The translations under genes and the position numbers were made by a program. Source: Folioceros fuciformis (lineage: Eukaryota). From it: a stretch of 56,978 nucleotides of DNA. The DNA lies in assembly GCA_049999805.1 (NCBI GenBank), contig JBNGIO010006279.1:497815-554792 (forward strand), written 5' to 3'. The notes under the pieces are model-generated. The model saw only the letters and a list, made by a program, of their open reading frames with translations, was not told the DNA's origin and ran no database searches. Below are positions 36,228-56,765 of this stretch, piece by piece (position 1 is the stretch's first letter; every line of letters begins with the position of its first letter).

Positions 36228-36478
36228 ATGGAAGCGCTGTGGAGGTCTTTCTTTCTGAACCCTGCGGAATGGTGGGACAACAGATTGATCAAGGTACGCT
36301 TGGGGTTGTGGTTGAAGCTCTAAATGGGTAATCCACTTGCAGTTCCCACACTGGACTTGGGTTTTGCAGACGGATTCTAGAGTTCCAGACTTTCGGCACA
36401 AAGTGAGCAAGGAGGGGTTGTGGGTGGAGCAGGATGGGACTCCGAGCTGGGTGGTGCCTGAGCTTGGTTTCATGGAGG
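36228..36478 (+). CDS. Exons encoding an OSB-type PDF motif (36228-36293 + 36370-~36478), probably 5' exons of the downstream PPR gene
   Basis: MEALWRSFFLNPAEWWDNRLIK | 76-nt GT-AG intron | TDSRVPDFRHKVSKEGLWVEQDGTPSWV. Colinear with the PDF motif at 52180-52323. Confidence 0.75.
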
Positions 36479-36954
36479 GTCAGAAGTGTGTGCATTATGC
36501 TGTGTGTGGGTCGTGGCATATTGTAATGGATACACGTCTCATGGGCAATTAATGTCGCTGTGGGGACAGGGGCCAGCACCCAAGAAACAAGGAGTCCACT
36601 GGAGTGGCAAGGCTGTGTCACTGGTAAGGTGAGCGCGAGATTTCATGCATCGATGTATTTTGTAGCCATGCCTTGTGGGTCGACCCCGTCTAAAGTAGGG
36701 ATTGTGGGATGCTTACAGAAAGTTGCGAGTGGGGTGGGTTACGAAGGCATGCAAGGAGTAGTGCTGGTGGAGACAAGCTTGACGTGAGAGTTGCAAGTTT
36801 GGAGTCCAGGAGACAGGCAAACTTGCTGAACAAGTTTAAGGACCGGACTTCGCAACATGGAGCTGAAGCAGATGTGAGGTACCTTACCCGGTTTTCTATA
36901 ACAAATGGAAGTGACCTTTTGAAGTTTTGAGGTGGTGGACTAATCAATGACTTC

Positions 36955-39576
36955 TTGCGCAATTCAAGGATCACGCATGGACGCAATCAGGAACTGAAAA
37001 AACTGTGTGAGGAAGGGCGGATTGAGGAGGCACTCGAGGTGCTGAAACAGAGGAGCCAGCATTCAGGAATGGTACTGAATGAGACATATGGACATCTGTT
37101 TGAAGCGTGCAGCAAAATTAGGAGCCTTGATATGGCTAGGAGGGCATATGCTCTTGTTACCGTGAAGGGTGGTGAGGTAACGGAAGCATATCTGTGCAGT
37201 GCGGTCATCAAAATGTTTGTCAAGTGCGGGAGTCTTCCGGATGCACTTCTGGTATTCAACCGTTCAACAAAACCTAATGTGTCTGCTTGTAAGACAGTCA
37301 TCTTAGGCCTTGCTGTAAGCGGACAGGGTCGAGAAGCTCTTAGAGTGTATCATAGAATGATAGCCCAACGTCTGAAGCCAGACAAGCACACATTTCTGTG
37401 CGTACTCAAAGTCTGCAGCAAACTAGCAGACCTGCAAGAAGGGAAAAGAATTCATGCGGACGTTGCGAGAGTTGGCTTGGAGTCGGATTTGTTCATAGGC
37501 ACAACTTTAGTAAATATGTACGTGAAATGTGGGAGTATGGTGGATGCCCAGGGTGCATTTGACAGAGTTGTCCCTCGCAATGTGCTTTCGTGGAATGTGC
37601 TGATTGCAGGATATGCCCAGCAAGATGAGAATGAAATAGTGTTGCGGCTGTATAATGAAATGCGAGACCAAGGTGTGAATCCACATGACAGGATCTTTGT
37701 TAGCGTGGTTAAAGGATATGGGAGCATGGCAACCTTGGAAACAGAGACAATGGTGGATGGACAGCCAATCAAGTTGCAAGCTCTAGAAAAGGGTAAGAGA
37801 ATGCATTGTGAGGTTTTAGAGTGGGGCTATGAGTCAGATGCGTTCGTGGCCACTGCTTTGATTGACATGTATGCTAAGTGTGGGAGCATCACTGATGCGC
37901 AGTATGCATTTAATTTATTGTCACAGCGGAATATAGCATCGTGGAATGCGTTACTATCAGGGTACTCCTATCATGGACATGCAGAGACAGTTTTGCAACT
38001 CTACTCCCATATGCAGAAGCAAGGAGTAGAACCCAGTGTTCGTACCTTTGTAACTGTATTGAAAGCCTGCGGCAGCGTGGCTGCTTTGGAAGATGAACAA
38101 ATTGTTTATGGGGAACTGGCGAAGCCAGCTTCTCTGCAAAGGGGAAAGGCCATTCATGCTGAAGTCTATAAGATGGGGTTTGAGACAAATGTTTTCGTGA
38201 GCAACACCTTAGTCCATATGTATGCAAATTGTGGCAGTTTCTCGGACGCCCTGATGTTGTTCGATAGGTTGGGAACACCTGATGTGATTGCTTGGAACGC
38301 AATCGTATCTGGATATGTTCGGCAGAAGCAGAGTGGCAGGGCTCTGGAATTGTATACTCAGATGCAGAAAGCCGGTGTGGAGCCTGACAAGTGGACGTTT
38401 GTAAGCGTGCTGCAGGCATGTGGAAGTGTGGCAGCACTGGAGGAAGTTCCTCAAACAGGTGGACATCCTGTGAAACAAGACTCGCTGCAAAAGGGCAGGG
38501 TAATACATGCTCAGATCCGCAGATACGGGTGTGAATCTGACCCATACGTTAGCTCTGCGCTGATTGACATGTACGGGAAATCTGGAAGTATGACGGACGC
38601 AGAGCATGTGTTCGAGAGCTTAGCTAGACGTGACGTAGTGTCATGGAATGCGCTGATATCTGGATATGCGCAGCAAGAGCAGGGGATGAGAGCAATTCAA
38701 CTGTACTCCAGAATGCAAGAGGAAGGTGCAATACCAGATGAGGCCACATATCTCTCAATGCTCAAGGTTTGTGGTGGTATTGGAGCCCTGTCAATGTGCA
38801 CACAGATCCATGTTGACATGGTGAAAAGCGGGCTCGGTTCGTCTCTAAGTATGGGAAACACGCTTATTCTAGCATACGCGAAATGTGGTAGTTCGGCTGA
38901 TTCAAAGCTTGTTTTCGACTCCTTGCCCAAGCGGAGTCAGATCTCATGGAATGCCATGATTGCAGCGTATACCTTGCAGGGTGACTACGATAAGAGCATG
39001 GAGTGCTTTCAGGAAATGCAGGAAGCAGGCGTGAAGCCGGACGGATACACGTTGAGCTCGCTGCTCGTCTCGTGCAGCCGTGCAGGAATGTTGTACAAGG
39101 GTCTGCACTACTTCCAGTACTTGGTGAGAGACTGCGGCATCAGTGCAACAGACAGGCATTATGCCAGCCTCATTGACCTCGTCGGCCGGGCAGGACTCCT
39201 CCACAAGGCAGAGGACTTGATGCTGCACATGCCTGACCGACCTGGCTTCACAACTTGGATGTCTCTTCTTAGTGCGTGCAGAATCCACCACAACGTTGAG
39301 CTGGGAAGACGTGCATTCGAGCAAGCTTTGAGGCTAGAGCCGAAGCACAGTGCTCCATACATGGTCATGGAGAACATATACGCCCAGGCCGAAATGTGGG
39401 ATTGTGCAGACAAAGTGCTTGAACTGAGGGCACAATCACTTCCTTGGAAGAGACGCGGTCAAAGCTGGATTGAGTGTGACAAGAACGTGCATGTGTTTGC
39501 GGCAGGAGACAAAAGTCACATTCAGACGGATCGCATTCATGCACAGCTTTCAAGATTAGCCTCAAAAATAGGCTAA
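36955..39576 (+). CDS. PLS-class PPR protein, E+ subgroup (no complete DYW), with long L motifs; true start probably in upstream exons
   Basis: Repeated P-L-S triplets (VVSWNALI, TFVSVLQAC, MYAKCG), P2-L2-S2-E1-E2, then RGQSWIE..VHVF..GDKSH and a stop. The ORF starts at TTG. Confidence 0.93.
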   Translation: MRNSRITHGRNQELKKLCEEGRIEEALEVLKQRSQHSGMVLNETYGHLFEACSKIRSLDMARRAYALVTVKGGEVTEAYLCSAVIKMFVKCGSLPDALLVFNRSTKPNVSACKTVILGLAVSGQGREALRVYHRMIAQRLKPDKHTFLCVLKVCSKLADLQEGKRIHADVARVGLESDLFIGTTLVNMYVKCGSMVDAQGAFDRVVPRNVLSWNVLIAGYAQQDENEIVLRLYNEMRDQGVNPHDRIFVSVVKGYGSMATLETETMVDGQPIKLQALEKGKRMHCEVLEWGYESDAFVATALIDMYAKCGSITDAQYAFNLLSQRNIASWNALLSGYSYHGHAETVLQLYSHMQKQGVEPSVRTFVTVLKACGSVAALEDEQIVYGELAKPASLQRGKAIHAEVYKMGFETNVFVSNTLVHMYANCGSFSDALMLFDRLGTPDVIAWNAIVSGYVRQKQSGRALELYTQMQKAGVEPDKWTFVSVLQACGSVAALEEVPQTGGHPVKQDSLQKGRVIHAQIRRYGCESDPYVSSALIDMYGKSGSMTDAEHVFESLARRDVVSWNALISGYAQQEQGMRAIQLYSRMQEEGAIPDEATYLSMLKVCGGIGALSMCTQIHVDMVKSGLGSSLSMGNTLILAYAKCGSSADSKLVFDSLPKRSQISWNAMIAAYTLQGDYDKSMECFQEMQEAGVKPDGYTLSSLLVSCSRAGMLYKGLHYFQYLVRDCGISATDRHYASLIDLVGRAGLLHKAEDLMLHMPDRPGFTTWMSLLSACRIHHNVELGRRAFEQALRLEPKHSAPYMVMENIYAQAEMWDCADKVLELRAQSLPWKRRGQSWIECDKNVHVFAAGDKSHIQTDRIHAQLSRLASKIG

Positions 39577-39959
39577 CTATGCATTGATAAATAGTGCTAG
39601 CAAACTAATTAAACAACGGTCCAAATCAAAGCACTAGATGAGACTGTCAAACTGCCAAAATAGCTGCGTAGTTCCTGCAGAGTAAAGTCGTTCGAGTGTC
39701 ACGCACAAGACCGAGTACACGACGCAAGAGCCTAGCTGCCAAAGCTTGCAGGGTCTCAAGTTTGCACGTGGACTGCAACTGAGGAACATCGGGGACAGTC
39801 TGCAAAGGAGTACGCTTGGTAACTCTAGAGTCCCAAGTCTAAACCCGGAAAGCCTGTCCATGCCTGCCGGACGATAGGAGGCTCCACCTAGCTCGATGAC
39901 TCCTTCCAAGACCAGGTGCAAGGACGCTGGAACATCCACGGATTCTGTCACCTTCCACT

Positions 39960-41363
39960 TTATTGCTTCACATGCCCATTGGAGCTGGGAATCTCACCTG
40001 TGGCGACAGAGTGCAGAGGCTTGGAAGGCATCCCAACGTCTGTGCCAAAGTAGCGATCCCCAAATTCACCCATGCCAGGAACAACGCGATATTCAGCATT
40101 CAAACCTTTGTCGATTTCGGATGTGACTATCTTCAGAAGTGGGAAACGGTCGCACACTGCTTGTATCCCCTCAGGAGCAGATATGAGGTTGAGGAAAATG
40201 ATGTTAGATTCGGGGACACCTTTCTTCAAAAGCAACTCGATGGCCTGAATAGCGCAGTTGCCTGTTGCCAGAACAGGATCAAGTAGCAACACATGCCGGT
40301 TCTGAATGTCTCTGGGAAGATTCTCGTAGATGAGATGCTTTCCATTGTCACCCTCCCTGTGAATCAAGATCTTGCCGATCTTGATGCCCTTGCAACAAGT
40401 CCGCAGAGCATTCTCCATACTCTCTCCACTTCGAATTATGGACACTCCACAAAGCCGCTTGCAAAAATCAACCCCACTGTAGACACATCCAGTAGGTGTC
40501 ACGACCTGCTTTTCCGTGAACGGCAGGTGCCCGAGACCGTGCTCAACAACTAAGCGGATCAACCGGTCAGCATAGAACACGAAGTCGGGATTCGTGGTGT
40601 CGTGGTCCCTAATGATGGTGTGCATGCCTCGGATTTGAAACGTGGACTGGATGACATGAACATTTCCATAAAACTTGCGCAGATCATGAAGCCCCAGCTT
40701 GGTCTGAATATGCTGCACAATCAGATGCACTGCCACGACATTCTCTCCTCCTCGAGGTATGATCACATCGGCATACTTCTTCGTCGGCAGAACAAAATCG
40801 TCGAACGCAGGCTTCACAAACTTAGCATACTGCTCAAGCACACCATTCACATCCCTTCCCCTCTCCAAAGTATCTCTTCTAATTCTTCTTGCAAGCCTCA
40901 CGTCCGCATCCGTGTCCACGAAAATCTTCATGTTCATCATATCCCGAATCCGGGGATCATGGAAAATCAGGATCCCCTCCAAAATCACTACATCCGCTGC
41001 ATTCACCTTCCGGGAGCTGAGAGTGCTCCGCCGGTGCCACTTGAAATCGTAGACAGGAATCTCCACATCCTGCCAGGCCTTCAACTGCCGCAAGCATTCC
41101 AAAAGCTGGTCAGTATCAAAAGCATCGGGATGATCAAAATTGTATTCGCCAGCGTTCTTCGATTCCTCCGGAGTCAGACCCCGGTAGAAGGAATCCTGGT
41201 TCACCAAAATGACCCGGTGGTCATGGAGCTGCTGGATGATCAAGTCGCAGACAGTGGTTTTCCCAGATGCAGTTCCACCAGCAACTCCAATCACAAACGG
41301 CTGCAACTGTTTGCAAAGCACAGTCTGCTTGTTCTCCTCTGCTTCTTCAGCTGCATCAGCCAT
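39960..41363 (-). CDS. UKL: Uridine kinase-like / uracil phosphoribosyltransferase fusion protein, intronless CDS
   Basis: GVAGGTASGKTT P-loop, QDSFY, NFDHPDAFD, LEGIL, then the UPRT domain (RSGESME, LLDPVLATG, PGMGEFGDRYFGT). Confidence 0.93.
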   Translation of the reverse strand: MADAAEEAEENKQTVLCKQLQPFVIGVAGGTASGKTTVCDLIIQQLHDHRVILVNQDSFYRGLTPEESKNAGEYNFDHPDAFDTDQLLECLRQLKAWQDVEIPVYDFKWHRRSTLSSRKVNAADVVILEGILIFHDPRIRDMMNMKIFVDTDADVRLARRIRRDTLERGRDVNGVLEQYAKFVKPAFDDFVLPTKKYADVIIPRGGENVVAVHLIVQHIQTKLGLHDLRKFYGNVHVIQSTFQIRGMHTIIRDHDTTNPDFVFYADRLIRLVVEHGLGHLPFTEKQVVTPTGCVYSGVDFCKRLCGVSIIRSGESMENALRTCCKGIKIGKILIHREGDNGKHLIYENLPRDIQNRHVLLLDPVLATGNCAIQAIELLLKKGVPESNIIFLNLISAPEGIQAVCDRFPLLKIVTSEIDKGLNAEYRVVPGMGEFGDRYFGTDVGMPSKPLHSVATGEIPSSNGHVKQ

Positions 41364-41750
41364 CTTAGGAACAGTTCCAGCCTCCTGGCTCACAGCTGAA
41401 TATCCGAGTGGCGATGGCAGGATGCTAGAGAGAAAATATAAAAACAGAATAAGCTCGTTTAGGGTATGACCACTTCTGTCCAATTAGGGTTGTGAGGCAA
41501 ACCACTGGCTTCCTTACCTCTCTTCTGGACATTCTCAGCACCTTCACATGCCATAAGCTGTGGCTTGATGCACAACGCATCTGCCATTTGTCTGCATTTG
41601 CACATACTCACCTAATAAAAATAAGCTCGGTTCTTGCTTCAATTCCACAGCCTCAGATATAGAATATCTTATACTGTACCACTTCGTCCGAAAAATTAAC
41701 TAAAATTGACTGGCTTCGTTTAGGGCATGACCTCCCCCACTCTCTCCGTT

Positions 41751-41758
41751 TAGGGTTT
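41751..41758 (-). promoter_or_regulatory. Telo-box (AAACCCTA) in the short divergent promoter between UKL and the complex I subunit gene
   Basis: Exact tagggttt about 100 bp upstream of ATG 41858; related gtttaggg copies near 41457 and 41718. Confidence 0.4.
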
Positions 41759-41857
41759 GCGTGAGCTGGAGATAGCATTCCCACACATGCTAAAGTGAGC
41801 GACGTTCAGCAAGCTCTCCGTCTCCCAGTGCTTGGACATCGGAGCAGATCAGAGCAA

Positions 41858-42263
41858 ATGGGGGTCATCCTGAACGCACCTAAGTTCCCGGTGGTTGATC
41901 CAAATCCATCGGCCAGCAAGACTGTGTCCAACTTCAACTTCGATGATCTCGTGAAACTCACGACACTCACCTCCGGATCGACGGCGTTTGGCTACATTGC
42001 AGGTCAGGAGGGATTGAGTCCTGTCCTTCGAATCCATCCCTTCTGCTGCGAGGAAGCTCCGCTGCTCTGTGAATTTTAATGATTCAGAATTGGAAGATCT
42101 GGATTTTGCAGGAGTGAGCTCCAACATCAGAGGCCCGTCTATGTATGTTGGAGGACTCCTCGGATTAATGGGGGGATTTATGTATGCATACCAGTGCTCC
42201 GCCTTCCGGCTGATGGGCTTCCTACCGAACGATGATGAGGTTGAAAGACACAGAAGATCCTGA
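41858..42263 (+). CDS. Mitochondrial complex I accessory subunit (20.9 kDa/NUXM-like); exons 41858-42002, 42112-42263
   Basis: PKFPVVDPNP..TVSNFNFDD..GYIAG|..IRGPSMYVGGLLGLMGGFMYAYQCSAFRLMGFLPN. 109-nt GT-AG intron. Confidence 0.85.
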
Positions 42264-42834
42264 CTTCGGGAAGTGAATTTTAATTCGAATTTTCGTGCCC
42301 GGGTTGGCACTAGCAGCTCAGTTAGACGATGGAGAGTTATGTGGATTGCGAAAGTGCAGTGTTCTGCCGCGAAGAGCAGCCATCCGTTTGGCAAAGATGT
42401 ATACCCCATTTGTTCAAGTCTGATATTTCCTGATAGCTGGGCTTGTAGAGCTTCATGCCTGCTCAGTGTTTCCTATAGCATAGCAGGCTGCCGTTGCATG
42501 CATGGTCAAGCTGCCCGGTTTGTTACATCTTGTTCCCTGACCAATTTGGTCAGTGTTCGTGGCCTGTCTCCGGCAACTCCCAGACCTTGTTAAGCCAACT
42601 CTAGTCATCAGCTTGTGGACCTATGCATCTCTCCTCAACCAGGTAAGGTGCTCGGTGTAGGCTACTGAACTCCCACGCACTAAACGGGATCACTCCGTGA
42701 AGCTTCTTGCTTTAACAAAGCTGATCCCCGTCTTTGACCCTCTTCAACCTCGCCCTGACTTCGTTCAGCGTATGCTGGTGCTTCGGGTGAGTTCTCATCT
42801 CATTTCAACCACAGAGTTCCACTTTTCAGATGAG

Positions 42835-44609
42835 TTACACTTTGCTTAGCAGCAGAGCTTCTGGTTCTTGTTGAGCCCATGCGGCAATCAAATTGTGAGC
42901 TATAGCATACGGCCCAGGGACGAAGGAGACAGGAGTTTCCTGTCCACTGGAATCTATCTGTAGGTCTACCAGCGAATCCTTGGCCAGCTGGTCTCCACAA
43001 CAAGCTCTGTACACCCTCATTGCAGACGAAAGTTGTGCTTTTTTATACTCTGTGTGCGTCAGGGCTTTTCTGATCTGGTCCCGAGTATGCCACTGGGCAT
43101 CTGCGGACAAATCACAACATAGAAACTTACAACCAGGATAAGGACAGGTCCAAAACTCCGTGGAACAACAAATTCGCGTGAATTACCCTCAAGCTCTTTG
43201 TTATCGACGCGTATGTCAAATGTCTTGGCAAATGCAAAAAATCCGACCATCAACTGGCACGGCATGCTGCTCCTTCCAACTGCAACACAGCCAACGAAGG
43301 ACGTCAAGAATCTTGCCACAACTCTCCCTTTCCACCAATCCACGTCTGACGGAAAGGGTCAGCAGTACTGCACCTGGCCAAGGCTGTGAACTGTGATATA
43401 CAACTTCGCCTACTTCGATGCCAACCTCTTCTCTAGTCTCACGCCTCACAGCTTCCTCCAGGCTTTCTCCTTGCTGCAAGGACACAGGCAAGGGTTCTCT
43501 CACACCGTGCCACTCAACACGATAGGCACGAGAGCAGATGGAATGGAAACTGGTGTAACAGATGTCAAGTGCGCACCTCGATGAAACCAGCCAGGCAGCT
43601 CCACATTCGAGGGACAAAGCGAGACTGCCGGCCCAGCACGACAGCATCCCTCTCCTTGTCAATCACCAGCATGATAACCACCTGCAAGCCTCACTTTACG
43701 TATCAGCACCCTTCTATTTGCCTGTCTGTCTGTCTGTCTGTCTTCATAGCTGCAACCAACTGGCACGAGATGTATGACTGCTGAAACCCACCGGATCCAG
43801 CCGCGGATAGGATTTGGTCCTGCAACTAGGGTTGGAGCACTGACGACGCAGCCCAGACTCAATGGATTGAGTCGGCTTCCCACACGTGCCACAGAACTGC
43901 GCATGCTTGTGCCACTCAAGCATTGCCCTGGCCTGCAAACCCACACCCACATGACAAGTCGGTTGGATCTTTCAACCACCTTCTAAGCACATTCCATCAT
44001 GAGTTCAGATCAGCCGAAGTACAACGAGAATCGCAATCCAGATACAAGCAAGATTTCCATCCCAGGGGAACACGGGCCCAAGTCACGCACATGACCTGCA
44101 ATCGACAGCTCGGCCAAAGCTGCTTCATCTGTCCAGTGCGCTCCCACCATCAACGTCCTGAGCTCCACAAACGCCACCGCATCTCCAGATTCGTGCTTCA
44201 ACCTCTTGGCCAGCTCCGCCTCCGCAGCAGCTGACGGCCGCTCTGAGGATCCTGGAGCTGGAGCAGGCGTGCCGTCGGTGGGCGACACGTCCAGCGCCAG
44301 AAACAGCGTGCCATCCCTCTCCCCCAGGTATACCACCTTGTCCAAATCGAGATCGCCCTCGCCATTGGCTGGCCGGCCGATGGCTTGCCCAACTGCGTCC
44401 GGCGAAATCCATACCAGCCGCCATTCTGGGCTCCTACCATCGGGTCCCAGAGAAGCAGTCACAAGAGGCTTGCCATCACAGACCGGCAGCACTTTGGTCT
44501 GGGTATCTGCTGTTTTGAGCAGGCTCCACAGCGCCTGTGTGCTCAGATCGTCCCTCTTGCCTGGGATCAGAGGATTTCGAGAGAAGACGTTCTGTTTTGC
44601 TTCTCCCAT
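42835..44609 (-). CDS. Nudix NAD(P)H pyrophosphatase (NUDT19/NudC-like), multi-exon; start uncertain
   Basis: FSRNPL, FVELRTLM, zinc ribbon FCGTCG..RQC..C..YPRLDP, LAGFIE|QGESLEEAVRRETREEVG Nudix box, SQPWP, AIAHNLI. Ends SKV*. Confidence 0.88.
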
Positions 44610-44922
44610 CCTGCGGCCTGCGACTTCTGGTCTGGCGAAGGCGCTGCTTGTCCGACACTTAAATAAGATCGCCCATGGTCTGGACGTCAAACACGGACGT
44701 GGAACAACAGGCCCAGATTGCTTGCTTGTGGTAACTCCTGTTGCCACAACCACAACCACGCCATCCTGTCACGACCCGAAGTGAAAAGCATTGCATGTGC
44801 TGGAGGCCGCGAGAGATTTACCGGTGAGAGGGTGAAGGTGATTGTGATAACATATCTGTGGGCTGTTGATGATCCGGTTGAGTGGACCCATGTCCAGCGT
44901 TGCACAGCTCAAAGTTTGACAG

Positions 44923-46887
44923 ATGTATTTGAAGCATTGTTTGGTTATGTCATCCTGTGGGAAGGGCAGGAAAGGGCAGGAGAAGGAGACGAGCTATGAG
45001 CAGATGAAAGGACTGTGTGCGGAGAGGAAGAAGCAGAGGTTTCTGAGGCTGCTGGAGAGCTGCAACAGGGTAGCAGACCTGGAAGAGGGGAGGAGAGTCC
45101 ATGCTGACATTGTTCGGGATAGGTGGGAGTCTGATGTCTGCATTGGGAATAGTCTTATCAGCATGTACTCCAAGTGTGGGAGCGTTGCAGATGCACGGAA
45201 TGTGTTTGATACCATGTCCAGGCGCTCTGTGGTATCTTGGAATGCCATGATATCGGGATATACTGGGCATCTGCAGATACAAGAAGAGGAAGCTCTTAAG
45301 CTGTATGCTGAGATGCAGAATCTTGGTGTTTCACCGAATGATCGTACTTTTGTCGGTGTGCTGAAAGCATGTAACAGGCTTGCCAGCAGAGAAGCAGAGA
45401 CTCTGGTGGATGGCCGAGCTCTCAAAGTGAATGCCTTGCACAAGGTGAAGGGTATTCAGGGGGAAGCTGTCCGAAGAGGTCTTGAAACGAATGTGTTTGT
45501 AAGCAGTAGTCTCATCCATGTGTTTGCTAGCTGTGGGAGCATCGGGGATGCTCGGCTTGTGTTTGATACTTTGGCTAATCCCAATATGGTGTCATGGAAT
45601 GCCATGCTTGGAGGATATGTTGAGCAGAAGGAGGGTGAGAAGGCTTTGGAGCTGTATGTTGTCATGCAGGAGAGAGGTGTCAGGCCAAATGACCGGACCT
45701 TCGTGAGTGTGATCAAAGCCTGTGCCACTGTGGCAGCCCGGGAAGCAAGCATCATTCTAGACGGGCAAACAGTGAAAGTGGACTCACTGCGGAAGGGCAA
45801 GGCTATACATGCTGAAGTTCTGGTCAGCGGGCATGAATCCGACTCATTCGTTGGTAGCACTCTCATCAAAATGTACTCCACCTGTGGGAGCATTGTTGAT
45901 GCAAGGGCTGTGTTTACATCATTACCTCATGTGGACGTGGTCCCGTGGAATTCGATGATTGCAGGGTACGCTCAGCAGGAGTTGGGCGAGGAGGCTCTGC
46001 AGCTCTACCTTCGGATGCAAGCTGAAGGCATCAGACCAACAGAGGCTACTTTTTTGTGCATCCTCAGAGTCTGCAGCAGTTTGGGAGCTCTGAACACCTG
46101 CAATCGTATCCGCCATGATGTTATTGCCCACGGGGTCCAGCAGAGCATACCTGTCACATCCGCCCTTATTCATGCATATGGCAAATGTGGGAGCATGGTG
46201 GATGCTCGGCAGGTATTCGACAGGTCGCGGAGGCCAGATTTGGTCCTGTGGAATGCTCTGATGGGAGGATATGCCTGGGAAGGGGATTTTGAGATGGTGT
46301 TCCAATCCTTTGCTGCAATGGTAGAAGCAGAAATTCAGCCGGATGGAGTTACATTTGTGTCACTTCTCTCCGCATGCAGCCATGCCGGCATGGTGAGCAA
46401 GGGCCTTGGGTACTTTGAGTCCATGACCATAGAACATGCCATACCTGCTTCTAGCGAGCACTATGCTTGTGTGGTAGACTTGCTTGGCCGAGCAGGGCTG
46501 TTCGACATGGTGCAAGCATTCATAATGCAGATGCCGCTGGAGCCTGGTCTGTCCGTTTGGATGTCATTATTGGGAGCTTGCCGGAAATATGGCAAGGTGA
46601 AGCTTGGTAGACATGCCTTCGATTGCTTGGTTCGAATAGATCCTGGGCAGAGTGCCGCATATGTCATGTTGTCACACATCTACGCTCAGGCTGGGATGCT
46701 GGGCAGTGCCAAGGAGATCGACGAGCTGAGAAGGCAAGCCGGTGCAAGAAAACAGCCTGGTCAGACATGGATAAATCATAACCACGAGGTACACATGTTC
46801 GTGGTAGAAGACAACAGGCACAAGGAAATTGACAAGGTGTATGAAGTGTTGCGAGAGCTTGATTCCCTCCTAGGTGTGCAAACGTAG
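44923..46887 (+). CDS. PLS-class PPR protein, E+ subgroup, with two long L motifs; intronless
   Basis: P-L-S triplets, E1/E2, KQPGQTWI..VHMFVVEDNRH, and a stop before the deaminase motif. Confidence 0.93.
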   Translation: MYLKHCLVMSSCGKGRKGQEKETSYEQMKGLCAERKKQRFLRLLESCNRVADLEEGRRVHADIVRDRWESDVCIGNSLISMYSKCGSVADARNVFDTMSRRSVVSWNAMISGYTGHLQIQEEEALKLYAEMQNLGVSPNDRTFVGVLKACNRLASREAETLVDGRALKVNALHKVKGIQGEAVRRGLETNVFVSSSLIHVFASCGSIGDARLVFDTLANPNMVSWNAMLGGYVEQKEGEKALELYVVMQERGVRPNDRTFVSVIKACATVAAREASIILDGQTVKVDSLRKGKAIHAEVLVSGHESDSFVGSTLIKMYSTCGSIVDARAVFTSLPHVDVVPWNSMIAGYAQQELGEEALQLYLRMQAEGIRPTEATFLCILRVCSSLGALNTCNRIRHDVIAHGVQQSIPVTSALIHAYGKCGSMVDARQVFDRSRRPDLVLWNALMGGYAWEGDFEMVFQSFAAMVEAEIQPDGVTFVSLLSACSHAGMVSKGLGYFESMTIEHAIPASSEHYACVVDLLGRAGLFDMVQAFIMQMPLEPGLSVWMSLLGACRKYGKVKLGRHAFDCLVRIDPGQSAAYVMLSHIYAQAGMLGSAKEIDELRRQAGARKQPGQTWINHNHEVHMFVVEDNRHKEIDKVYEVLRELDSLLGVQT

Positions 46888-46957
46888 CGGCGCAAGTTCT
46901 TTCGGCAGCAACAGCATGAATAGAATGAAGAAAAGCAAGGACTGGCAAAGGTCGTAT

Positions 46958-48464
46958 TTACAGGATGCCTGCTTGGAGGCTGTTCGACACACTCCTCATC
47001 CAGGCATCCAGCAAGGTCACAGCTTTTTCCCAACGGTCATCCAGCATCACATCATGAGCCAAACCTTTGATGAGATAGGCCTGCGTGCCCCACTCCTCAG
47101 CAGTTTTGTGGATCTCCTCAGGCGTAAAGATGGCATCACTGAGGCCACCGAGTACAAAGGCTGGAGGCAATGCCACGCCTTCCTTTTTCAACTTTTGAGG
47201 AAAGGCAAACCGCGAGGCCAGACCCATTGGCAGGAGAAAGGATTCCTGAGGCTCCAGATACGAATGTAGGCGCGCAACCTCATCGGCGTCAGAGAAATCA
47301 ACTGAGAGCATCATCTGGACCCAAGTGCAGAGCAGAAGAGGTCAGTGAACTTTGTGTCATCCGAGCGTTGCATCTAGATAGCTCATGGACAAACGTCTAT
47401 GCCGCATGCTGTGACAATAAACCGACCTCCTTGAACAGAGCAGGTGTGCCAAGCAAAGTCTTGAGATTCCAGGTGAGAAGCCCCACGAGAAATGCGACCT
47501 TCTTCCTCCATGCCCATCGAAGAAGAGCAGCCCCCCCTCCAGAAGGTGGAAAAGAAGCCATCAAAGCTATAGCTGTTACAGCTGGCACCTCGGTCTCAGT
47601 CCGCAGAAACCACCACCGGCGAGACTTGGGGAGGACCTGCCTTCCTGCCACGATTGCTTGTACAACTCCACCTCCAGCAGAGTGGCCTACAAGAATTGGG
47701 GGGCGGCTCCCTGGATTGTCCTTCGCAATCTTCTTGACAGCTAAATTCAGTCCTCGGACACATTGGCTCAGTGTGACTGTAGGCGTGAACCCCGTACTCT
47801 GACCTCGCCCCGGAAGATTCACCTGTGAAGAGAGCAGAGACTCAATCCACTGGAAAACCATGTCGGAGCACAAGGATGTGACGGAACAGCCTTGCCAAGT
47901 CCGTACTCTATGTGAATCTGTAGCTCACCGCATAGCATGCCCATCCTCTCTCAGCAAGCCATCCCGTCAAGTGCTCCTGCCAGCACCATGCCCCGTGGTA
48001 GCTGCATCCATTTGCACCCACAATCTCATCAGTACACCCGAGCCCAGCCCTGCCTACAGGACGTCGGATACAAGTACTGAACATCATTCAGTCCGTGACC
48101 GGACAGGTTACAGCGAATCCCTGGCAGAGGAAGAAAGAATCTGGAGGTACCCGCCATGGACGAGGACCAAGGGAGGAAGGCCGGGAGATCCAGAGCCCTG
48201 CTTCACCAGCTCCAGCTCGCATTCTTCCTCATCGATTGCGCAGTTGGAGAGCTTGCGGGAGAGAGATCGCACTGCCCGCCTACGCTGCCTCCTCCGCACG
48301 AACCAGAGAACGCCTCCGAACGCTGAAACCACCCCTACCGTTGCCAGAGCTGCGGTCAAAGCGGATGGCATCACAAACGGAAAAGAATCCGTGTCGCCAT
48401 GGCTGGAGCTTCCTGCTCGGCCGCCTGCTGGTCTGCCATAGGCGTAGTAGCCGTGAGGGGCCAT
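46958..48464 (-). CDS. Membrane-anchored alpha/beta hydrolase; 4 exons
   Basis: N-terminal TM helix, LVLVHGG|YHGAWCWQ..CYA|VNLPGRGQS, nucleophile GHSAGG, LGGLSDAIF, LAHDVMLD..W. Splice phases are consistent. Confidence 0.85.
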
Positions 48465-48955
48465 TCCTGCCTCTGTTCTCCACTTGCGGCTCCGCCATCT
48501 TAGGCTCAAGACGTTAGGGCCTTTGCTTTGCTTCGGGGAGATTGTTCTGCGAAACCGGTTCTATTTCTAGCAGGAACAGTAAAGCCAAGCTACACGAACT
48601 CCCACTCCGACCCAAGCTTTGGGGAAGTTCCAACTCCCTTCCATCCAAGTAGGAAGCTATGTGGGTGCGACATCAGGCATGGGACTTTTCGTCGTGGGGT
48701 TTCAAGGTGTGCAGCAGACTGGATGTGCAGATGCGAATGGGAGTTGGGTCAATGCTGTGTGGCCCGAATCCGAGATCTGGAAACCTGGCACGGTAATAGC
48801 ATCGAGCAACCCAACAAACCGTCCCTGAGGTTGAGAGGCTAGTGGTGCAGGTTAGACTTGACTGATTGGGCTGAATGCAGAAATGATGAGGTTGGGATTG
48901 CTCTTGCTCTGCGTGCAGGAAGCAGAAGCAGAAGGGGCCGGAATCAGAGGAGGCT

Positions 48956-51567
48956 TTGAAGTCGTTGAGTCGTCTGTGTGAGGATGGAAGGGTGGAAGAG
49001 GCACTACTTCAGATGGATCAGCCAGGTGCCGTGGATGCAGCGGATACAGTGCAGATATATATGAAACTGTTGAAATCGTGCACCACGAGGAAATCACTGG
49101 CTCAGGCCAAGCGGGTGCATGATCATCTGACCAAAAATGGGCTGGAGTCAAACAGGTATTTGGGTGATATGTTGTCTATACTTTGGTGAAGTGTGGGGGC
49201 TTTGTAGACGGGGTACGCATGTTGGACAGATTGTCAAACCGAACTGTTTTAACTTGGACAGCTATCATCTCAGGGTGCACTAAGCTGGGTCAATGGCAGG
49301 AGGCGCTGATAAGGTACCAGCAGATGCAAGAGGAAGGTGTGCAGCCAAACACTTACATACTTGTGAGCTTGCTGAAAGCCTGTGTCAGCTTAGGAGACCT
49401 GGGAGAGGGCAAGCGAATCCATGCTGATGTCGTGATTCGTGGGTGTGAGAATGATGTGTTTGTGGGCACATCTCTGGTTGACATGTATGTCAAGTGTGGA
49501 AGCATAGCTGATGCGGGGTATGTGTTTGACCGCTTGTCGCACCGGGATGTAGTTTCCTGGAATGCCATGCTTGCCGGATATGCTCTGCACAAGCAAGGGC
49601 ATAAGGTTTTGCAGTTAAATGTGCAGATGAAGGAGGAGGGAGTGAGTCCGAACCATCGGACTCTTGTTAGCGTGCTCCAAGCATGCAGTAACCTTGCAGA
49701 AGAAGAAGAAAGTGTCATTCTGGATGAGCAGCCCATCAAAGTGGATTCGCGATGTAAGGGGAGGGCGATCCACGGAGAAGCAGTTCGGAGGGGTTATGAG
49801 TCAGATCTATTTGGTTGTACGGGTCTCATCACTATGTATGCAAAGTGTGGGAGTATGGTGGATGCGCAACATGTGTTCAGATTATGTCAGCATGATCTAG
49901 TTTCATGGACTGCCATGATAGCAGGATACACTCAGCAGCAGCAAGGGGAGATGGCTGTGCAGCTGTTTGAGGAAATGGTAGACAACAATGTTGCTCCAGA
50001 TGATTGGACATTTGCTTGTGCCCTCCAAGGATGTGGTACTGTTGCTGAAAAAGAGGATAGCATCATCCTAGATCTGCAATCCATCAAAGTGGAATGTCTT
50101 TCCAAGGCAAAAGCTTTGCATGCGGAAGCTGCTCAAGGGGGATACGACTGTGTCTTGTTTGTATCTAACTCACTTGTCAGTCTATATGCAAAGTGTGGAA
50201 GCATAGGGGATGCACGATACGTCTTTGACAGATTGCCCCGACGTGACATAGTTTCATGGAACACAGTGCTTGCAGGATATGCTCAGCACCAGCAAGGAGA
50301 GGAAGCTCTCAAGCTTTTAGCGCAGATGTAAGCTGATGGCCTGACTGCTGATGACTGGACGTTTGCCAGTGTGCTTCAAGCATGTAGTTGCCTTGCAGAG
50401 AAGGAAGAGTCTATGTCTGTGAATGCCCAACCCATCAGAGTCGGGAGTCTGCATCGGGGAAAGACAGTACTAGCAGAAGCTCGTTCGAAGGGCTCTGTAT
50501 TGGACGTGTTTGTAGGTAACGCTGATATCAGCCACTATATAAAGTGCGGGAGTCCTACAGATGCACAATGTGTGTTTCAAGAACTCTGCCAGAGGGATGT
50601 CACGTCTTGGAATATATTGCTTGCCGGATTCACTGGCCAGGGTCTAGAAGAACAGGCATTGCAACTTTATGCTGAGATGCAGGCAGACGGTGTGAACGCA
50701 GACGATGTAACAATAGTTGCCATTCTCGGGGCATGTGGCAACATAGGATTTCTCAGCAAAAGCTCTCAAATCCACCATGACATTGTACGAAGTGGGCTTA
50801 AACCCAGTCCTAGTGTGGCAACAGCTCTAGTTCATGCATACGGGAAGTGTGGAAGCATGCTAGATGCTCGCGATGTCTTGGACTCCCTGCCCCGTGATAA
50901 TCTGTGGTCTTGGAGTGCACTGATTGCAGGCTATGCCCGTCAGGGCCACCACGACAAAAGCGTGTCCTGCTTTGAGGAGATGCTTGCGGAAGGCCTGAAC
51001 CCCGATGCGGTCACATTCTCTTCGCTCCTCTCAGCATGCAGCCATGCTGGCATGGTGGAACAAGGCTTGGAGTACTTCGAATGCATGGCCAGAAGTTACG
51101 GTATCTCTGCAACAGTGGAGCACTACGGCATCATGATCGACCTCCTGGGCCGTGCAGGTCTGTTCAAGGAGGCTAAGCATTTCATTACCAGCATGCCAAA
51201 GGAACCTACTCTACCAGTGTGGATGTCCTTGCTTGCTGCCTGCCGAAAGCACGGCAATGTGGTGCTTAGGAGACTGGCCTTCGAACATGCTGTCCGCCTG
51301 CAACCAAGAGAAAGTTCCGCGTTTGTACTCATGTCAAACGTGTATGCTCACGCTGGCATGTCGGAGTCTGCCAAGGAGATCGAGTGGCAGAGACAGCTCG
51401 CAGGCGCATGCAAGGAGCCTGGACGAAGCTGGGTCGAATGTGGACATCAAGTGCATTCTTTTGTCGTTGGCGACCGTGGTCACCCGGAACACGAAACGCT
51501 TCACCAAGTCCTGAAATGCTTGTCTCGAAATGAACATGAATCGAAGACTCCGCCAAGTGCACTCTGA
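48956..51567 (+). pseudogene. PLS-class PPR E+ pseudogene (one frameshift, one nonsense codon)
   Basis: Three ORFs (48956-49189, 49183-50331, 50371-51567) form one PPR array. A 1-nt deletion near 49173 and an in-frame TAA at 50329-50331 in QM*ADG interrupt it. It ends KEPGRSWVE..VHSFVVGDRGHP. Confidence 0.85.
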
Positions 51568-51981
51568 TTTCTTGTCTCACAGGATTGTTCTACGTATCCC
51601 GTTATCACAATTGCCCACGATTCCTCTTCGACCAAACCACACGTCGATGATGAAGACAAAATGGCACAATTCAATACTCAAATCACAACTCCATGGCAAC
51701 GTTTGCACGATCCCCGTTTGTCCATGTCCATTTTCGATCTCTTAGGCGGCTGTGGTTCACCAGCATCGTGCATAATCGGCCTTCAACTGCTTGGTTTCGC
51801 GATCTTCGCTGGCTCATGGCTAAAGTGTCCGAAGCGCGGTTTGTGGTTCGCCGGCATTGTACTACAGTCGGCCTCCAAGTGCTCACTTCCCTGAGATTTG
51901 AGACCTGCAGTTGTCAACAATGTTGTGGCAGAGCCGGTGGAATTCAGGAGAGGAGTGTCTGATATGATTCCATAGGAAGAA

Positions 51982-54900
51982 ATGGCGCTACCATTGCAGT
52001 TTTCCCAGGCCGTTTTGTGGGCGGTCCCCGACTCTGAGAATCTGGTAAATCAACAGTGGATACGTCTCCAGGCATCGCAGCCCACCTCTGTGCCTTGGAG
52101 GTCAACGAATGGCAGGTGTGTTGTGTGCACGGTTTCTGCCGTTCGGAGTGAGGGGAGTGTGCAGGCAGAGAAACAGGACCTATTGTGGCAGCATTTCTTC
52201 CAAGATCCTACTGTGTGGTGGGACAACAGACCGGATAAGAGGAGTTCCAGTCATCCCGACTTCAGGCACAAAACGTCCAAGGAGGCGCTGTGGCTGGATA
52301 ACCGTGACAAACCTGAGTGGGTGGATTCGCAGCTGGCCAGATGGGATGCTGGACAGAAGACCGCACAAGATGGCTGTAAAGCACATGCGGAAGTGGATGC
52401 TATGGTTCAGACATTGTACGTACGGTGTGAGGAGGGGGAATTGAGGGATGCTGTTGAAGTTTTAAATCTCCTAGTACAGAGAGGGTGCTGTGTAAGCCAG
52501 TCTCTCTACTATCGTGTTCTCAAGTTGTGCATGGCACGGAAGGATTTGGGTCTAGGCAGGCGGGTTCATGCTCTTGCTGAGAAAAGTGGGTACCAGTCAA
52601 GCCCATTCTTGGCGAACCACATCATCAGAATGTATGGTTTTCATGGCAAACTGGAGGATGCATTGCATATCTTTAACAAAGTGATTGAACCAGATGCTTA
52701 TATGTGGGCCAGCTTGATTCTGGCGCACGTTCGACATGGAGAGCCCAGGAAGGCTGTAGAGCTGTACCGACGGATGCGAGATTCAAGTATGGAGGCAGAT
52801 AATCATGTGTTCGCAGCAGTCCTCAGGGCCTGCGCAAGTTCAGAGGATCTAGTTGCTGGCAAGGAGGTGCATGCTGATATTGTTGCCAGTGCTGTCCAGG
52901 CTGATGTGGTTGTTGGCAACAGCTTGGTGAACATGTATGCGAAATGTGGGAGAGTGGATGACGCTCGCAGTGTGTTTGACAGGTTGGGTGCGAGGGATGT
53001 GGTGACCTGGAATACTATGATCACTGGATATACGCAGGAGGGGCTTGGTAGAGAAGCCCTGGCCCTCTATGCTAGCATGCAGGAAGAGGCACTTGCTTTA
53101 GCCAATCCCGCTACTTTCATGTGCCTCCTGCAAGCTTGCAGTACTGTGGGAGCACTGCATCTGGGACAGGAGATTCACGAGCGAATACGGGACAAGGGAA
53201 TGGGAACTGATCTGCTGGTGGGAAACTCCTTGGTCGACATGTATGCAAAGTGTGGGAGCTTGGAAACTGCAGTCAGGGTATTTGATGCAATGCCCACGAG
53301 AGATGTGGTGACATGGAACACCATGATAGCTGGATATACGCAGCAGGGGCATGGTCATGATGCACTCGCCATGTATGCAAGGATGCAGGAGGAGGGCGTC
53401 ATTGCCAGTGAAGTGACGTTCGTCTGCCTTCTTCAAGCATGTGCGAATATCGGCATCGAAGCTGTTTTCGAGGGAAAGGAGCTCCATGAGCAGATTTGTG
53501 GAAGGGGTCTGGAAACTGGTACGTTGATCGGGAGCTGCCTGGTGGAGATGTATGCCAAATGTGGGAGCGTGGAGAAAGCTCGAAGTGTGTTTGACAGGAT
53601 GTCCACAAAAAATGTGGTCACATGGACTTCCATGATCGCAGGATATGCTCAGCACGGGCTTGGACAGGACGCCCTTGCCCTATACAGTAGCATGCAACAA
53701 GAGGGCATGACTCCACCTGATCGTGTCACATTTCTTTATCTCCTGAAAGCATGCGGTAGTTTAAAATCTCTGCACCTGGGCCAGGGCCTTCACACACAGG
53801 TCAAAGAACGAGGGCTGGAAGGAGATTTGCTAGTTGGTAACTGCCTTATCGAAATGTATTTGAAATGTGATAGCTTGGAGGATGCTCGGAGAGTGTTCAA
53901 CGGTCTACGCACAAGAGATATTGTGACATGGAATACGATCATCGCAGGATATGCTCACCGAGGGCTCGGGCAAGAAGCTCTTGATCTGTATGACACTATG
54001 CAAGCAGATGGGTTGACTCCGGCCAATCAAACAACTTTTGTGTCCCTCCTTCAAGCTTGCGCCACAGTGGGAAGGCTGCATCAGGGGAAGCAGCTTCACG
54101 CACAGATTCGTGAAAGTGGTCTGGAAGCTGATGTATCTGTTGGCAGCAGCCTGGTCGACATGTATGCAAAATGCGGGAGCTTGAAGGATGCTCTCACCAC
54201 CTTTGACAACCTGATGACGAAAGACGTGGTTACATGGACTGCCATGATCGCAGGATACTCCCAGCAGGCAATGGGTCAGGAAGCACTGGATCTTTATGTA
54301 GCTATGCAGCTAGAGGGCATGAGTCCAGCTAACCATGTAACATTTGTGTGCCTCCTTCAAGCGTGTGCAACTTTGGGCGCCCTGCATCAAGGAAAGGGGC
54401 TTCATGTGCAAATAGAGGAAATGGGTTTCCTTGCAGACGTGCAAGTCGGCAACTCTCTGGTGAACATGTACGCAAAATGTGGAAGTATGGGTGACGCCAG
54501 AACTGTATTCAACAGATTGCCAGCAAAAGACGTAGTAACATACAGTGCCCTGCTCAACGGCTATGCCGAGCATGGTGACGGGCAAATGGCTATGGAATGT
54601 TTCGAAGAGATGCTTCAGCAAGGTGTACAGCCAGATGCAACCAGCTTCGTCTGCCTGCTTGTGGCATGCAGCCATGCAGGCCTGGTCTCTGAAGGCAGGC
54701 AATACTTCAGAACGATGGTGGACACGTACGCTATAGTTCCAACTGATCAGCACCATAGCTGCATGGTTGACCTAATCGCAAGATCAGGCCATCTCTCAGA
54801 AGCTGAAGATATGATCCTATCTACGAGGTTCGAGAACGACTTTGTGGCCTGGAAGTCTTTGCTCAGTGCGTGCAAAAACCATGGAGATGTAGACCGTGCA

Positions 54901-55446
54901 AGGCGGTGCTTCAACCGTCTCGTCGAACTGGAACCTGAGCACGCCAGTTCCTACGTACTCCTGGCCAACATGTATGCGAGCGCCGGCAGGAGGACGGACG
55001 CAGATCGGATAGAGGACATGAGAAAGACGGCAGGTGCTAGGAAGAAACCTGCCAGGGCCGGCATCGAGGTGAACAACAAGGTGCACGAGTTCACAGTGGG
55101 AGAAGGTAGGGTTGAGATCTCATCAAAGGTGCGGAGTGTGAACAAGAGGTTAAAGGAGGAAGGTGGCCATGTGCCACAGACGGACTTGGTGCTCAGGACC
55201 GTGTCGGAACAGGAGAAGGAAGACGCCTTGTGTGGACATGCTGAGAAACTCGCGTTGGCCTATGGCTTACTGAACACTCCAGACGGCGCCACTTTGCTGG
55301 TGACAAAAAACCTCCGGATGTGCAACGACTGCCATAGCAGTACCAAGATCATGTCAAATCTCGAGAACCGGGAGATAATTGTCAGAGATGCTCATCGTGT
55401 CCACCGCTTTGTGAATGGATCTTGCAGCTGCGGGGATCGACATTGA
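51982..55446 (+). CDS. PLS-PPR protein with DYW:KP (DRH-type) deaminase-like domain and N-terminal PDF motif; candidate U-to-C organellar RNA-editing factor
   Basis: 1154-aa intronless ORF: transit-like N-terminus, WWDNR..PDFRHK, ~23 PLS motifs, E1-E2, KKPARAGIEV, HAEKLA, CNDCH, SCSCGDRH*. Confidence 0.93.
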   Translation: MALPLQFSQAVLWAVPDSENLVNQQWIRLQASQPTSVPWRSTNGRCVVCTVSAVRSEGSVQAEKQDLLWQHFFQDPTVWWDNRPDKRSSSHPDFRHKTSKEALWLDNRDKPEWVDSQLARWDAGQKTAQDGCKAHAEVDAMVQTLYVRCEEGELRDAVEVLNLLVQRGCCVSQSLYYRVLKLCMARKDLGLGRRVHALAEKSGYQSSPFLANHIIRMYGFHGKLEDALHIFNKVIEPDAYMWASLILAHVRHGEPRKAVELYRRMRDSSMEADNHVFAAVLRACASSEDLVAGKEVHADIVASAVQADVVVGNSLVNMYAKCGRVDDARSVFDRLGARDVVTWNTMITGYTQEGLGREALALYASMQEEALALANPATFMCLLQACSTVGALHLGQEIHERIRDKGMGTDLLVGNSLVDMYAKCGSLETAVRVFDAMPTRDVVTWNTMIAGYTQQGHGHDALAMYARMQEEGVIASEVTFVCLLQACANIGIEAVFEGKELHEQICGRGLETGTLIGSCLVEMYAKCGSVEKARSVFDRMSTKNVVTWTSMIAGYAQHGLGQDALALYSSMQQEGMTPPDRVTFLYLLKACGSLKSLHLGQGLHTQVKERGLEGDLLVGNCLIEMYLKCDSLEDARRVFNGLRTRDIVTWNTIIAGYAHRGLGQEALDLYDTMQADGLTPANQTTFVSLLQACATVGRLHQGKQLHAQIRESGLEADVSVGSSLVDMYAKCGSLKDALTTFDNLMTKDVVTWTAMIAGYSQQAMGQEALDLYVAMQLEGMSPANHVTFVCLLQACATLGALHQGKGLHVQIEEMGFLADVQVGNSLVNMYAKCGSMGDARTVFNRLPAKDVVTYSALLNGYAEHGDGQMAMECFEEMLQQGVQPDATSFVCLLVACSHAGLVSEGRQYFRTMVDTYAIVPTDQHHSCMVDLIARSGHLSEAEDMILSTRFENDFVAWKSLLSACKNHGDVDRARRCFNRLVELEPEHASSYVLLANMYASAGRRTDADRIEDMRKTAGARKKPARAGIEVNNKVHEFTVGEGRVEISSKVRSVNKRLKEEGGHVPQTDLVLRTVSEQEKEDALCGHAEKLALAYGLLNTPDGATLLVTKNLRMCNDCHSSTKIMSNLENREIIVRDAHRVHRFVNGSCSCGDRH

Positions 55447-55766: not shown

Positions 55767-56765
55767 TTATTGATTATCAGTAACAATTCCTTGTATGTTG
55801 AACACACTTTTTCTTATTTTATTTTGATCTTCAATTGACAGACGTAAGTCTTTTGTGAGGGTGAAACCATGGCTTAAAATATATGTTACCTCTATGTATA
55901 GTTTTTGAAGACATCTTTTATGAATATGTTTTGAATAGAGTTCCTGAAGTTCATCAGGCTTTTTCCTGGTCTTGTTCTTTCTTGATACTTTTTCGTTTGT
56001 CTTCTCCATATGAGGAACATATTTTCCATTGTAGGCATCTTTGTCAAAGGTGTTCCACCAATGTACTTGAATGTAAGGGTTCTTACACTTCAAGTTCAAG
56101 TTTTCAATCATTCCAATCCAGAATGGACGAGTAGGAATATCGGCACACAAAATAGCCACAAATTCTCCTCGTTTGTAAGCTTCAATCGTCCTTGGATGGT
56201 CTGCTTCCTCTAAGTTCCTTGGATGGTCTACTTCCTTTGAGTTCTGCACCTCCCCTACATCTCTAGGCTTTCTTGTGGCAATTGGTGTTATAGCCTTCCG
56301 CTTTTTATTTTGTGCATCGATACCGAAACATGAGCCACTATGAAGCCTTCGTGGGGATAAGGTGGTAATTGTGCTTGTTCTCGTCATTGGTATAATGGAT
56401 TTCCCTTTTATCTCCTCCTTATTTTTGTTTTGCATATGTTTCCGTCTGCTAGCCTCTAGCTTCCTTAGTATTTGGGTTTCATGATCTTCAACTCTACTAT
56501 TGTCAGTTTGTAGGTGTACAGCCTTCTCCAATGCATCCAATCTTTTGTTGATTTTGTCCATCTGTGTTTCTCTCTTCTCTATATCACTATTCTTTTCAAG
56601 GGATTGACTTTGCAATTCCACCATGGTTTGAAGTTTGACAAGAAGATCCTTCAAGTTAGTTTCAAGTGTTTTTACAAAAAGTGACAATAGAAGATAAGTG
56701 AGGATAGGAAACAAGTAATGACATATGTCCTTTGTGTTGCTTTGCAAGTCTAGGGATTGACACAT
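55767..56765 (-). other. AT-rich ORF of unknown function (coiled coil plus a Trp-rich beta-barrel-like domain), probably transposon-associated; may extend beyond the annotated start
   Basis: 332-aa open frame with heptad-like N-half, NLS-like NKKRK, and GEFVAI..RPFWIGMI..IQVHWW. Sharp GC drop after ~55600. Confidence 0.4.

Follow-up and report, generated by a model that had tools for sequence, protein, structure and literature searches.

An OSB-type PDF motif precedes a candidate U-to-C editing factor of the DYW:KP/DRH group in Folioceros fuciformis and recurs on PLS-class PPR proteins of non-seed land plants

What is a motif of plant organellar single-stranded DNA (ssDNA)-binding proteins doing at the N-terminus of an RNA-editing factor? 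The question is raised by a PPR gene at positions 51982-55446 of a 56,978-nucleotide stretch of Folioceros fuciformis DNA (assembly GCA_049999805.1, contig JBNGIO010006279.1, positions 497,815 to 554,792; this whole stretch is referred to here as the window), in which a PDF motif, the signature of the OSB proteins, is followed by a PLS-type PPR array, the E1 and E2 motifs and a DYW:KP domain ending in DRH. The open reading frame (ORF) has no internal stop codon, and an in-frame stop lies three codons 5' of its ATG. A further question is whether such a fusion marks a dedicated reverse (U-to-C) editor. The answer developed below is that the motif and the editing domain both conform to their respective families and that the N-terminal PDF motif, judged by its occurrence among related proteins, is a recurrent accessory of PLS PPR proteins in non-seed land plants and not specific to reverse editing.

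The initial annotation had recognized the PDF motif from a string at 52180-52323, which is present as claimed (aa 67-114, where aa stands for amino acids) and which a profile hidden Markov model (HMM) extends to the full motif given in Table 1. A phmmer search with aa 55-135 of the protein against 1.84 billion representative proteins returned 710 matches at E<=1e-3, 208 of them at E<=1e-10 and 20 at E<=1e-30, and many of these hold 2-13 tandem copies of the motif. Two of ten matches that were looked up carry OSB names: P0007 ('protein OSB3, chloroplastic/mitochondrial-like' from Chenopodium; 6.7e-45, four copies) and P0041 ('protein OSB1, mitochondrial-like' from Populus; 3.6e-22, two copies); a weak Pfam SSB domain (PF00436) was found in the OSB-like matches P0007 and P0024. 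An HMM built from the phmmer matches finds the motif in the window with an independent E-value of 4.3e-31 and aligns it to the PDF copies of OSB proteins over its full length. The window protein matches the consensus in each of the 13 columns (W15, P22, W25, D27, R29, K32, P38-D39-F40, L49-W50, P57 and W59) that are conserved in at least 80% of both the PPR-linked (n=40) and the other (n=295) PDF copies. Residues 56-133 are a genuine OSB-type PDF motif, and the identification made in the initial annotation holds. A Pfam scan of aa 1-173 gave no match at E<=0.1; Pfam is without a model for the PDF motif, and domain-based surveys would therefore miss it. When homologues were sought through a word index, the isolated PDF piece yielded eight candidates, none of which scored, and aa 56-240 two proteins only.

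The PDF motif is described as the ssDNA-binding part of OSB proteins, of which OSB1 and OSB2 prefer ssDNA over double-stranded DNA or RNA (PMC4166229); in OSB1 the PDF motif suffices to bind ssDNA, and AtOSB2 reportedly forms a tetramer (PMC6963530). Both sources agree with what the initial annotation had stated about the motif. A structure prediction, which the initial annotation had also proposed, gave a compact module: AlphaFold2, supplied with an alignment of 32 rows (the window piece and 31 short matches picked from 150 listed), predicted a helix (residues 3-20 of the piece), a small sheet and a second helix (59-78) with a mean predicted local distance difference test score (pLDDT) of 89.2 and a predicted template-modelling score (pTM) of 0.73. 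Foldseek found no look-alike of this model in the PDB (best E 2.4, to adenylate kinase fragments), and VIA-align against 48,161 chains returned generic helical matches only (best Z 5.2). Clusters of phage gp49 proteins in the ESM Atlas (0.80-0.84, against a lead threshold of 0.9) were dismissed as chance. The module is thus predicted to be folded, and it is conserved and selectively maintained.

Could the protein simply be an aberrant OSB? With OSB1-OSB4, which Zaegel et al. reportedly described in 2006 as plant organellar ssDNA-binding proteins, it has in common the PDF motif of about 50-70 aa with its 13 shared positions. OSBs carry 1-5 PDF copies at the C-terminus, preceded by an OB/SSB-like domain, whereas the window protein has a single N-terminal copy (aa 56-133 of 1154, with 55 residues before it), and its remainder is an RNA-editing factor. 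No OB/SSB-like domain was matched by Pfam in the whole window protein or in aa 1-173. Because it has no such domain and carries its PDF motif at the N-terminus, the window protein falls outside the OSB family, with which it shares only the PDF module. The motif also occurs in other settings: tandem arrays reach 13 copies, in a Kingdonia protein of 1160 aa without any Pfam domain, and PDF motifs are found in proteins annotated with a kinesin motor (Coptis) or as ICR2-like (Striga), in the set P0002, P0004, P0060 and P0024, which may be either real fusions or merged gene models. Kinesin and ICR2-like proteins were set aside as further fusion partners of the PDF motif, given that their gene models are possibly merged.

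Downstream of the PDF motif the protein is an editing factor of standard build. Residues 139-1154 are tiled by motif lengths without remainder (one P-like motif, 23 PLS motifs, E1, E2 and the DYW domain), and Pfam matched DYW_deaminase (PF14432) at aa 1062-1152 with an E-value of 2.2e-36, in addition to many PPR repeats. A phmmer comparison of the C-terminal 168 aa with solved PG-type DYW domains (a synthetic PPR-DYW protein, 9kfx, 2.8e-50; OTP86, 7o4e, 4.5e-35; DYW1, 7w86, 1.1e-33) revealed a common deaminase fold signature and common zinc ligands, CNDCH being retained. The window domain differs from these references in four respects: KKPARA aligns to KEPGCS of 9kfx, so that KP takes the place of PG; a four-residue gap lies opposite SHPQ of 9kfx, deleting xHP; HAEKLA replaces HSEKLA, with Ala for Ser in HxE; and the C-terminus reads GDRH, not GDYW. 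The alignments therefore bear out the features that the initial annotation had listed for this domain, namely KPARA for the PG box, the missing DxSHP segment, HAEKLA, CxxCH and the DRH end.

How regular a member of the KP group is it? DYW:KP proteins, which have been linked to U-to-C editing, are described from hornworts, lycophytes and ferns, in agreement with the lineages of reverse editing named in the initial annotation; hornwort KP proteins fall into two subgroups, DRH and GRP (the former defined by Gutmann et al., as cited in the same paper, in which the designer protein KP1 is modelled on DRH), most KP domains are without xHP, and the Ala of HAE is KP-specific (PMC9478123). KP domains measure 132-133 aa, and Lys88 is essential for U-to-C conversion (PMC11845758). 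The window protein shares with the hornwort DYW:KP/DRH proteins the PLS array, E1/E2, a KP domain of 133 aa, the absence of xHP, HAE, Lys88, CxxCH and the DRH end, and its catalytic part is without any departure from that family; its N-terminal PDF motif goes unmentioned in the consulted passages of the two KP papers. All sequence features that define PLS-class DYW:KP/DRH proteins (PLS motifs closing in P2-L2-S2 and E1/E2, the zinc signature, KP, domain length, Ala or Cys for Ser in HxE (here HAE) with Lys88, and DRH) were found. Among nine hand-picked closest relatives (50-57% identity), eight are HAE-type and end in DRH, GRP, DAH or similar (P0154, P0170, P0184, P0190, P0192, P0194, P0220 and P0253), whereas no HxE was matched by a regular expression in the ninth (P0158, which ends in DRP); P0190 and P0253, which are 53-57% identical to the window protein, also end in DRH. 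On these features the window gene belongs squarely to the DYW:KP/DRH group and adds a new gene to an established family; the name of its subgroup would by itself make a hornwort the probable source.

Fourteen of the 150 best PDF matches are PPR proteins (called by a phmmer match to aa 141-960 of the window protein at E<=1e-5), ten with one N-terminal PDF motif, three with two and one with three. Eleven of the fourteen are named by organism: Diphasiastrum (two), Selaginella (one), Sphagnum compactum (one, ending in DYW), Ceratopteris (one), Adiantum (two) and Pteridium (four, all of them transcriptome ORFs that contain PDF and PPR together); there are no seed plants among these eleven. Conversely, an N-terminal PDF motif was present in 21 of the 120 closest full-length PPR homologues of the window protein. 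By organism, in a tally done by hand, carriers made up 10 of 19 proteins in Diphasiastrum, 3 of 4 in Calypogeia, 3 of 4 in named Sphagnum, 1 of 14 in ferns (Adiantum, Ceratopteris; a weak partial match), 0 of 2 in Selaginella, 0 of 28 in seed plants (in which we take names beginning with 'Gb_' to be Ginkgo and with 'PITA_' to be Pinus) and 4 of 49 proteins without an organism name, all PDF counts being lower bounds. The C-termini of the 21 carriers are HSE-type (DYW/DSW) in nine and HAE-type in two (one DRH, one GRP), and ten have no HxE by regular expression. Viewed from the other side, just 2 of the 16 HAE/KP-like relatives among the 120 have the PDF motif. Since so few KP-like relatives carry it, the PDF motif is, on this comparison, dispensable for KP chemistry, and since nine carriers are HSE-type, it is an accessory not of reverse editing but of PLS PPR proteins in non-seed land plants more generally.

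The full-length carriers all show PLS-type motif signatures (by a crude regular expression). Like the window protein, the uncharacterised PDF-PLS-PPR proteins of Diphasiastrum, Selaginella, Sphagnum, Calypogeia, Ceratopteris, Adiantum and Pteridium have N-terminal PDF motifs (1-3 copies) followed by a PLS array; unlike the window protein, most are of the HSE DYW type or have no detected HxE, and they are annotated only as hypothetical or PPR proteins. In a FastTree phylogeny of 335 PDF copies the PPR-linked copies clustered (13 label changes compared with 38.4 after shuffling, and none of 500 shuffles as low) but did not form one clade, in a tree in which 17 of 332 branches were well supported (64 columns) and the rows labelled 'other' may include N-terminal fragments of PPR proteins. 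We found no published account of a PDF-PPR fusion in open-access papers and preprints, and no functional description of it, as the initial annotation had anticipated; a kingdom-wide survey from 2026 of the domains fused to editing factors contains no occurrence of PDF or OSB, and a 2026 paper on the OSB family no occurrence of PPR. The PDF-PLS-PPR architecture thus appears to be a widespread, undescribed variant.

The window itself contains a second PDF motif, which is split over two exons by a 76-nt GT..AG intron and lies 5' of a neighbouring PPR-E+ ORF on the same strand (Table 1). When its second exon was joined conceptually to the ORF at 36932-39576 through a 453-nt GT..AG intron, an open frame of 939 aa resulted, the product of which gave a single contiguous PDF match (72.4 bits, 9.7e-25). 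The neighbouring PPR-E+ gene therefore probably also bears a PDF motif, in what is a putative gene model; if so, two of the PPR loci of the window would carry the module. The split in this second copy indicates that gene calls can miss upstream PDF exons, which is why the counts given above are lower bounds.

How, then, might the protein work? We favour, with moderate confidence, the reading that an intact nuclear gene here encodes a PLS-class PPR editing factor targeted to an organelle, a candidate U-to-C editor of the DYW:KP/DRH group, in which the PDF module would act as a single-strand clamp. The N-terminal presequence (aa 1-55) would direct import into an organelle, and the approximately 24 PPR motifs would read about 24 nucleotides of RNA 5' of the target; from the fifth and the last residue of each P and S motif, the predicted upstream element is 5'-nUnnUYnUCnAGnUYnGAnUGnG-nnn-U, with S2 at position -4. 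Conversion of the target U to C would fall to E1/E2 together with Lys88 and the zinc-binding HAE...CxxCH centre, on the model of designer KP proteins. About six residues separate the end of the PDF motif from the first PPR helix, which would place the motif at the 5' end of the bound RNA, and because its hallmark residues are conserved as in OSBs, single-strand binding is taken to be retained. It may thus serve as a sequence-independent clamp for single-stranded nucleic acid that adds affinity or brings the editing factor to its partner, which would be either the RNA 5' of the site or the ssDNA of the nucleoid or transcription bubble.

Several observations weigh against this proposal. The predicted element depends on our own reading of the PPR code. 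In P0138, P0269, P0151 and P0152 the PDF motif begins 3-30 residues from the annotated start, which leaves little room for a presequence; such short N-termini before the PDF motif, seen in several carriers, may reflect truncated gene models or different targeting. The rarity of the PDF motif among KP-like relatives, given above, counts in the same direction. Lys88 is conserved in PG domains too and is therefore non-diagnostic for KP versus PG (PMC11845758), and the DRH-based designer KP1 is not among the three of seven designers (KP2, KP3 and KP6) that were active in U-to-C editing in E. coli (PMC9478123). Finally, by analogy with OSB1 and OSB2, whose ssDNA preference was cited above, DNA is favoured as the partner of the PDF motif, which would speak for a tether to DNA over a clamp on RNA.

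The point about KP1 leads to an alternative for the catalytic end of the protein, which we consider unlikely: the DRH domain may not be a U-to-C editor at all, acting instead in the C-to-U direction, in both directions, or as a catalytically silent specificity factor. The designer KP1 was without U-to-C activity in E. coli (PMC9478123) and small changes flip KP6 between C-to-U and U-to-C (PMC11845758), both of which fit such a view; however, a failed consensus design is weak evidence on natural proteins, every KP sequence hallmark is present in the window domain, and the PPR code is reported to pair KP proteins with U-to-C sites (PMC9478123).

An alternative for the N-terminal end, to which we give about the same low credence, is that the PPR-linked PDF motif is a protein-protein or oligomerisation module that recruits editosome partners, or that stabilises or caps the N-terminal end of the PPR solenoid. 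It draws on the compact helix/sheet/helix module abutting the first PPR helix, on the reported AtOSB2 tetramer (PMC6963530), on the 1-13 tandem copies in varied contexts and on the failure of Foldseek and VIA-align to match any solved nucleic-acid-binding fold. Yet the residues conserved in OSBs (five Trp/Phe, DxR..K and PDF.HK) are kept equally in the PPR-linked copies, which argues for the same activity, the reported ssDNA binding.

The initial annotation had gone further and proposed a specialised three-part reverse editor, in which a U-to-C enzyme, anchored by the PDF motif at the nucleoid or transcription bubble, would edit co-transcriptionally. All three parts (PDF, PLS array and DYW:KP/DRH) are real and stand in one ORF, and a tether, conjectural as it is, would agree with the sufficiency of the OSB1 PDF motif for ssDNA binding and with the preference of OSB1 and OSB2 for ssDNA over RNA (PMC6963530, PMC4166229). 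The part that did not stand is the dedicated link to reverse editing: HSE-type carriers and those without HxE outnumber the two HAE-type ones among the 21, most HAE-type relatives are without the motif, a Sphagnum PPR protein ending in DYW has it, and so probably does the neighbouring PPR-E+ gene. We therefore regard this specialised fusion as very unlikely. Least credible of all, and in our estimate highly improbable, is that the PDF stretch lies outside the working protein, as a relic 5' of the true start (e.g., Met141, an internal Met just before the first PPR motif) or as a piece cleaved off with the transit peptide, because the frame continues from the PDF motif into the PPR array, all 13 hallmark residues are intact, the arrangement is repeated in 14 of the 150 best PDF matches and 21 of the 120 closest PPRs, its carriers span mosses, liverworts, lycophytes and ferns (including fern transcript ORFs), and a start at Met141 would leave no presequence.

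Table 1. Features of the PDF-PPR gene and of other loci in the window (positions count from the first nucleotide of the window).
Feature	Position	Strand	Description
PDF-PPR ORF	51982..55446	+	complete, intronless, 1154 aa + stop; PDF - PLS PPR array - E1/E2 - DYW:KP(DRH)
Presumed organelle transit peptide	51982..52146	+	aa 1-55, 5' of the PDF module; inferred, without Pfam match; 9 Ser/Thr, 4 Arg, 2 acidic
OSB-type PDF motif	52147..52380	+	aa 56-133; LW..FF.DP..WWDNR..K.....PDFRHK...EALWL....P.WV; HMM i-E 4.3e-31
PPR array	52396..54840	+	P-like aa 139-172, then 23 P/L/S motifs aa 173-953, closing P2-L2-S2; Pfam and tiling
E1 and E2	54841..55044	+	E1 aa 954-987, E2 aa 988-1021; Pfam E_motif aa 967-1025, 9e-15; tiling
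DYW:KP domain	55045..55443	+	aa 1022-1154, 133 aa; KP at 1-2, xHP absent, HAE 65-67, Lys88, CNDCH, C-terminal DRH
Second PDF motif, two exons	36228-36293 + 36370-36478	+	76-nt GT..AG intron between; six-frame HMM 36225-36293, 36373-36477
Neighbouring PPR-E+ ORF	36932..39576	+	Pfam PPR and E motif
PPR-E+ frame, probably decaying	49219-51567	+	single in-frame stop 50329-50331
Non-LTR (LINE-like) retrotransposon	2939-4900	-	653-aa ORF
Thiolase	32368-33762	-	464 aa
Uridine kinase/UPRTase	39960-41363	-	467 aa
Lys/Glu-rich ORF	55767-56765	-	332 aa

The gene stands in a local PLS-class cluster of four same-strand PPR loci within about 19 kb (36200-55446; loci at approximately 36.2-39.6, 44.9-46.9, 49.2-51.6 and 52.0-55.4 kb). 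One of them, 5' of the PDF-PPR gene, is a PPR-E+ reading frame broken by one in-frame stop, which falls within a P motif; this frame is without a start-proximal region, terminates early in the DYW region and is probably a decaying PPR paralogue. Just 3' of the PDF-PPR gene, on the opposite strand, lies a Lys/Glu-rich ORF with no Pfam match at E<=0.001. Elsewhere in the window, the non-LTR retrotransposon was recognized by its endonuclease/exonuclease/phosphatase and reverse-transcriptase domains, and uridine kinase/UPRTase and thiolase are each encoded by one ORF without interruption, an uncommon arrangement for housekeeping genes of plants.

To our knowledge, enzymatic U-to-C conversion has no candidates other than the DYW:KP proteins. 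These are under development as programmable RNA base editors, and natural members such as the window protein are raw material for this work. The more interesting result is, however, the PDF motif itself: its only role known to us is ssDNA binding in OSB proteins, and here it turns up at the RNA-entry end of many PLS editing factors of non-seed plants. A broader interpretation, which we offer tentatively and think doubtful, is that PDF-PLS-PPR proteins are an ancient type of land-plant editing factor, in which an OSB-type ssDNA clamp links C-to-U and U-to-C editors alike to the nucleoid or transcription bubble, and that hornwort-type, moss, liverwort, lycophyte and fern lineages retained this type while the PPR proteins of seed plants lost it. 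Seed plants depend on separate helpers, among them MORF/RIP. If this interpretation were true, heterologous tests, in which N-termini are routinely trimmed off, would have examined native editing factors of non-seed plants in a form that lacks a functional domain; moss factors are indeed assayed without their N-terminus, and PPR56 constructs, for example, keep only 14 residues upstream of the first PPR. Should the PDF motif prove dispensable, the gene would be an ordinary member of a known family. If, on the other hand, it contributes, it would provide a small, portable single-strand binding domain for designer PPR editors, and if it adds affinity, recruitment or coupling to transcription, views of how editing factors find their sites in early-diverging plants would change.

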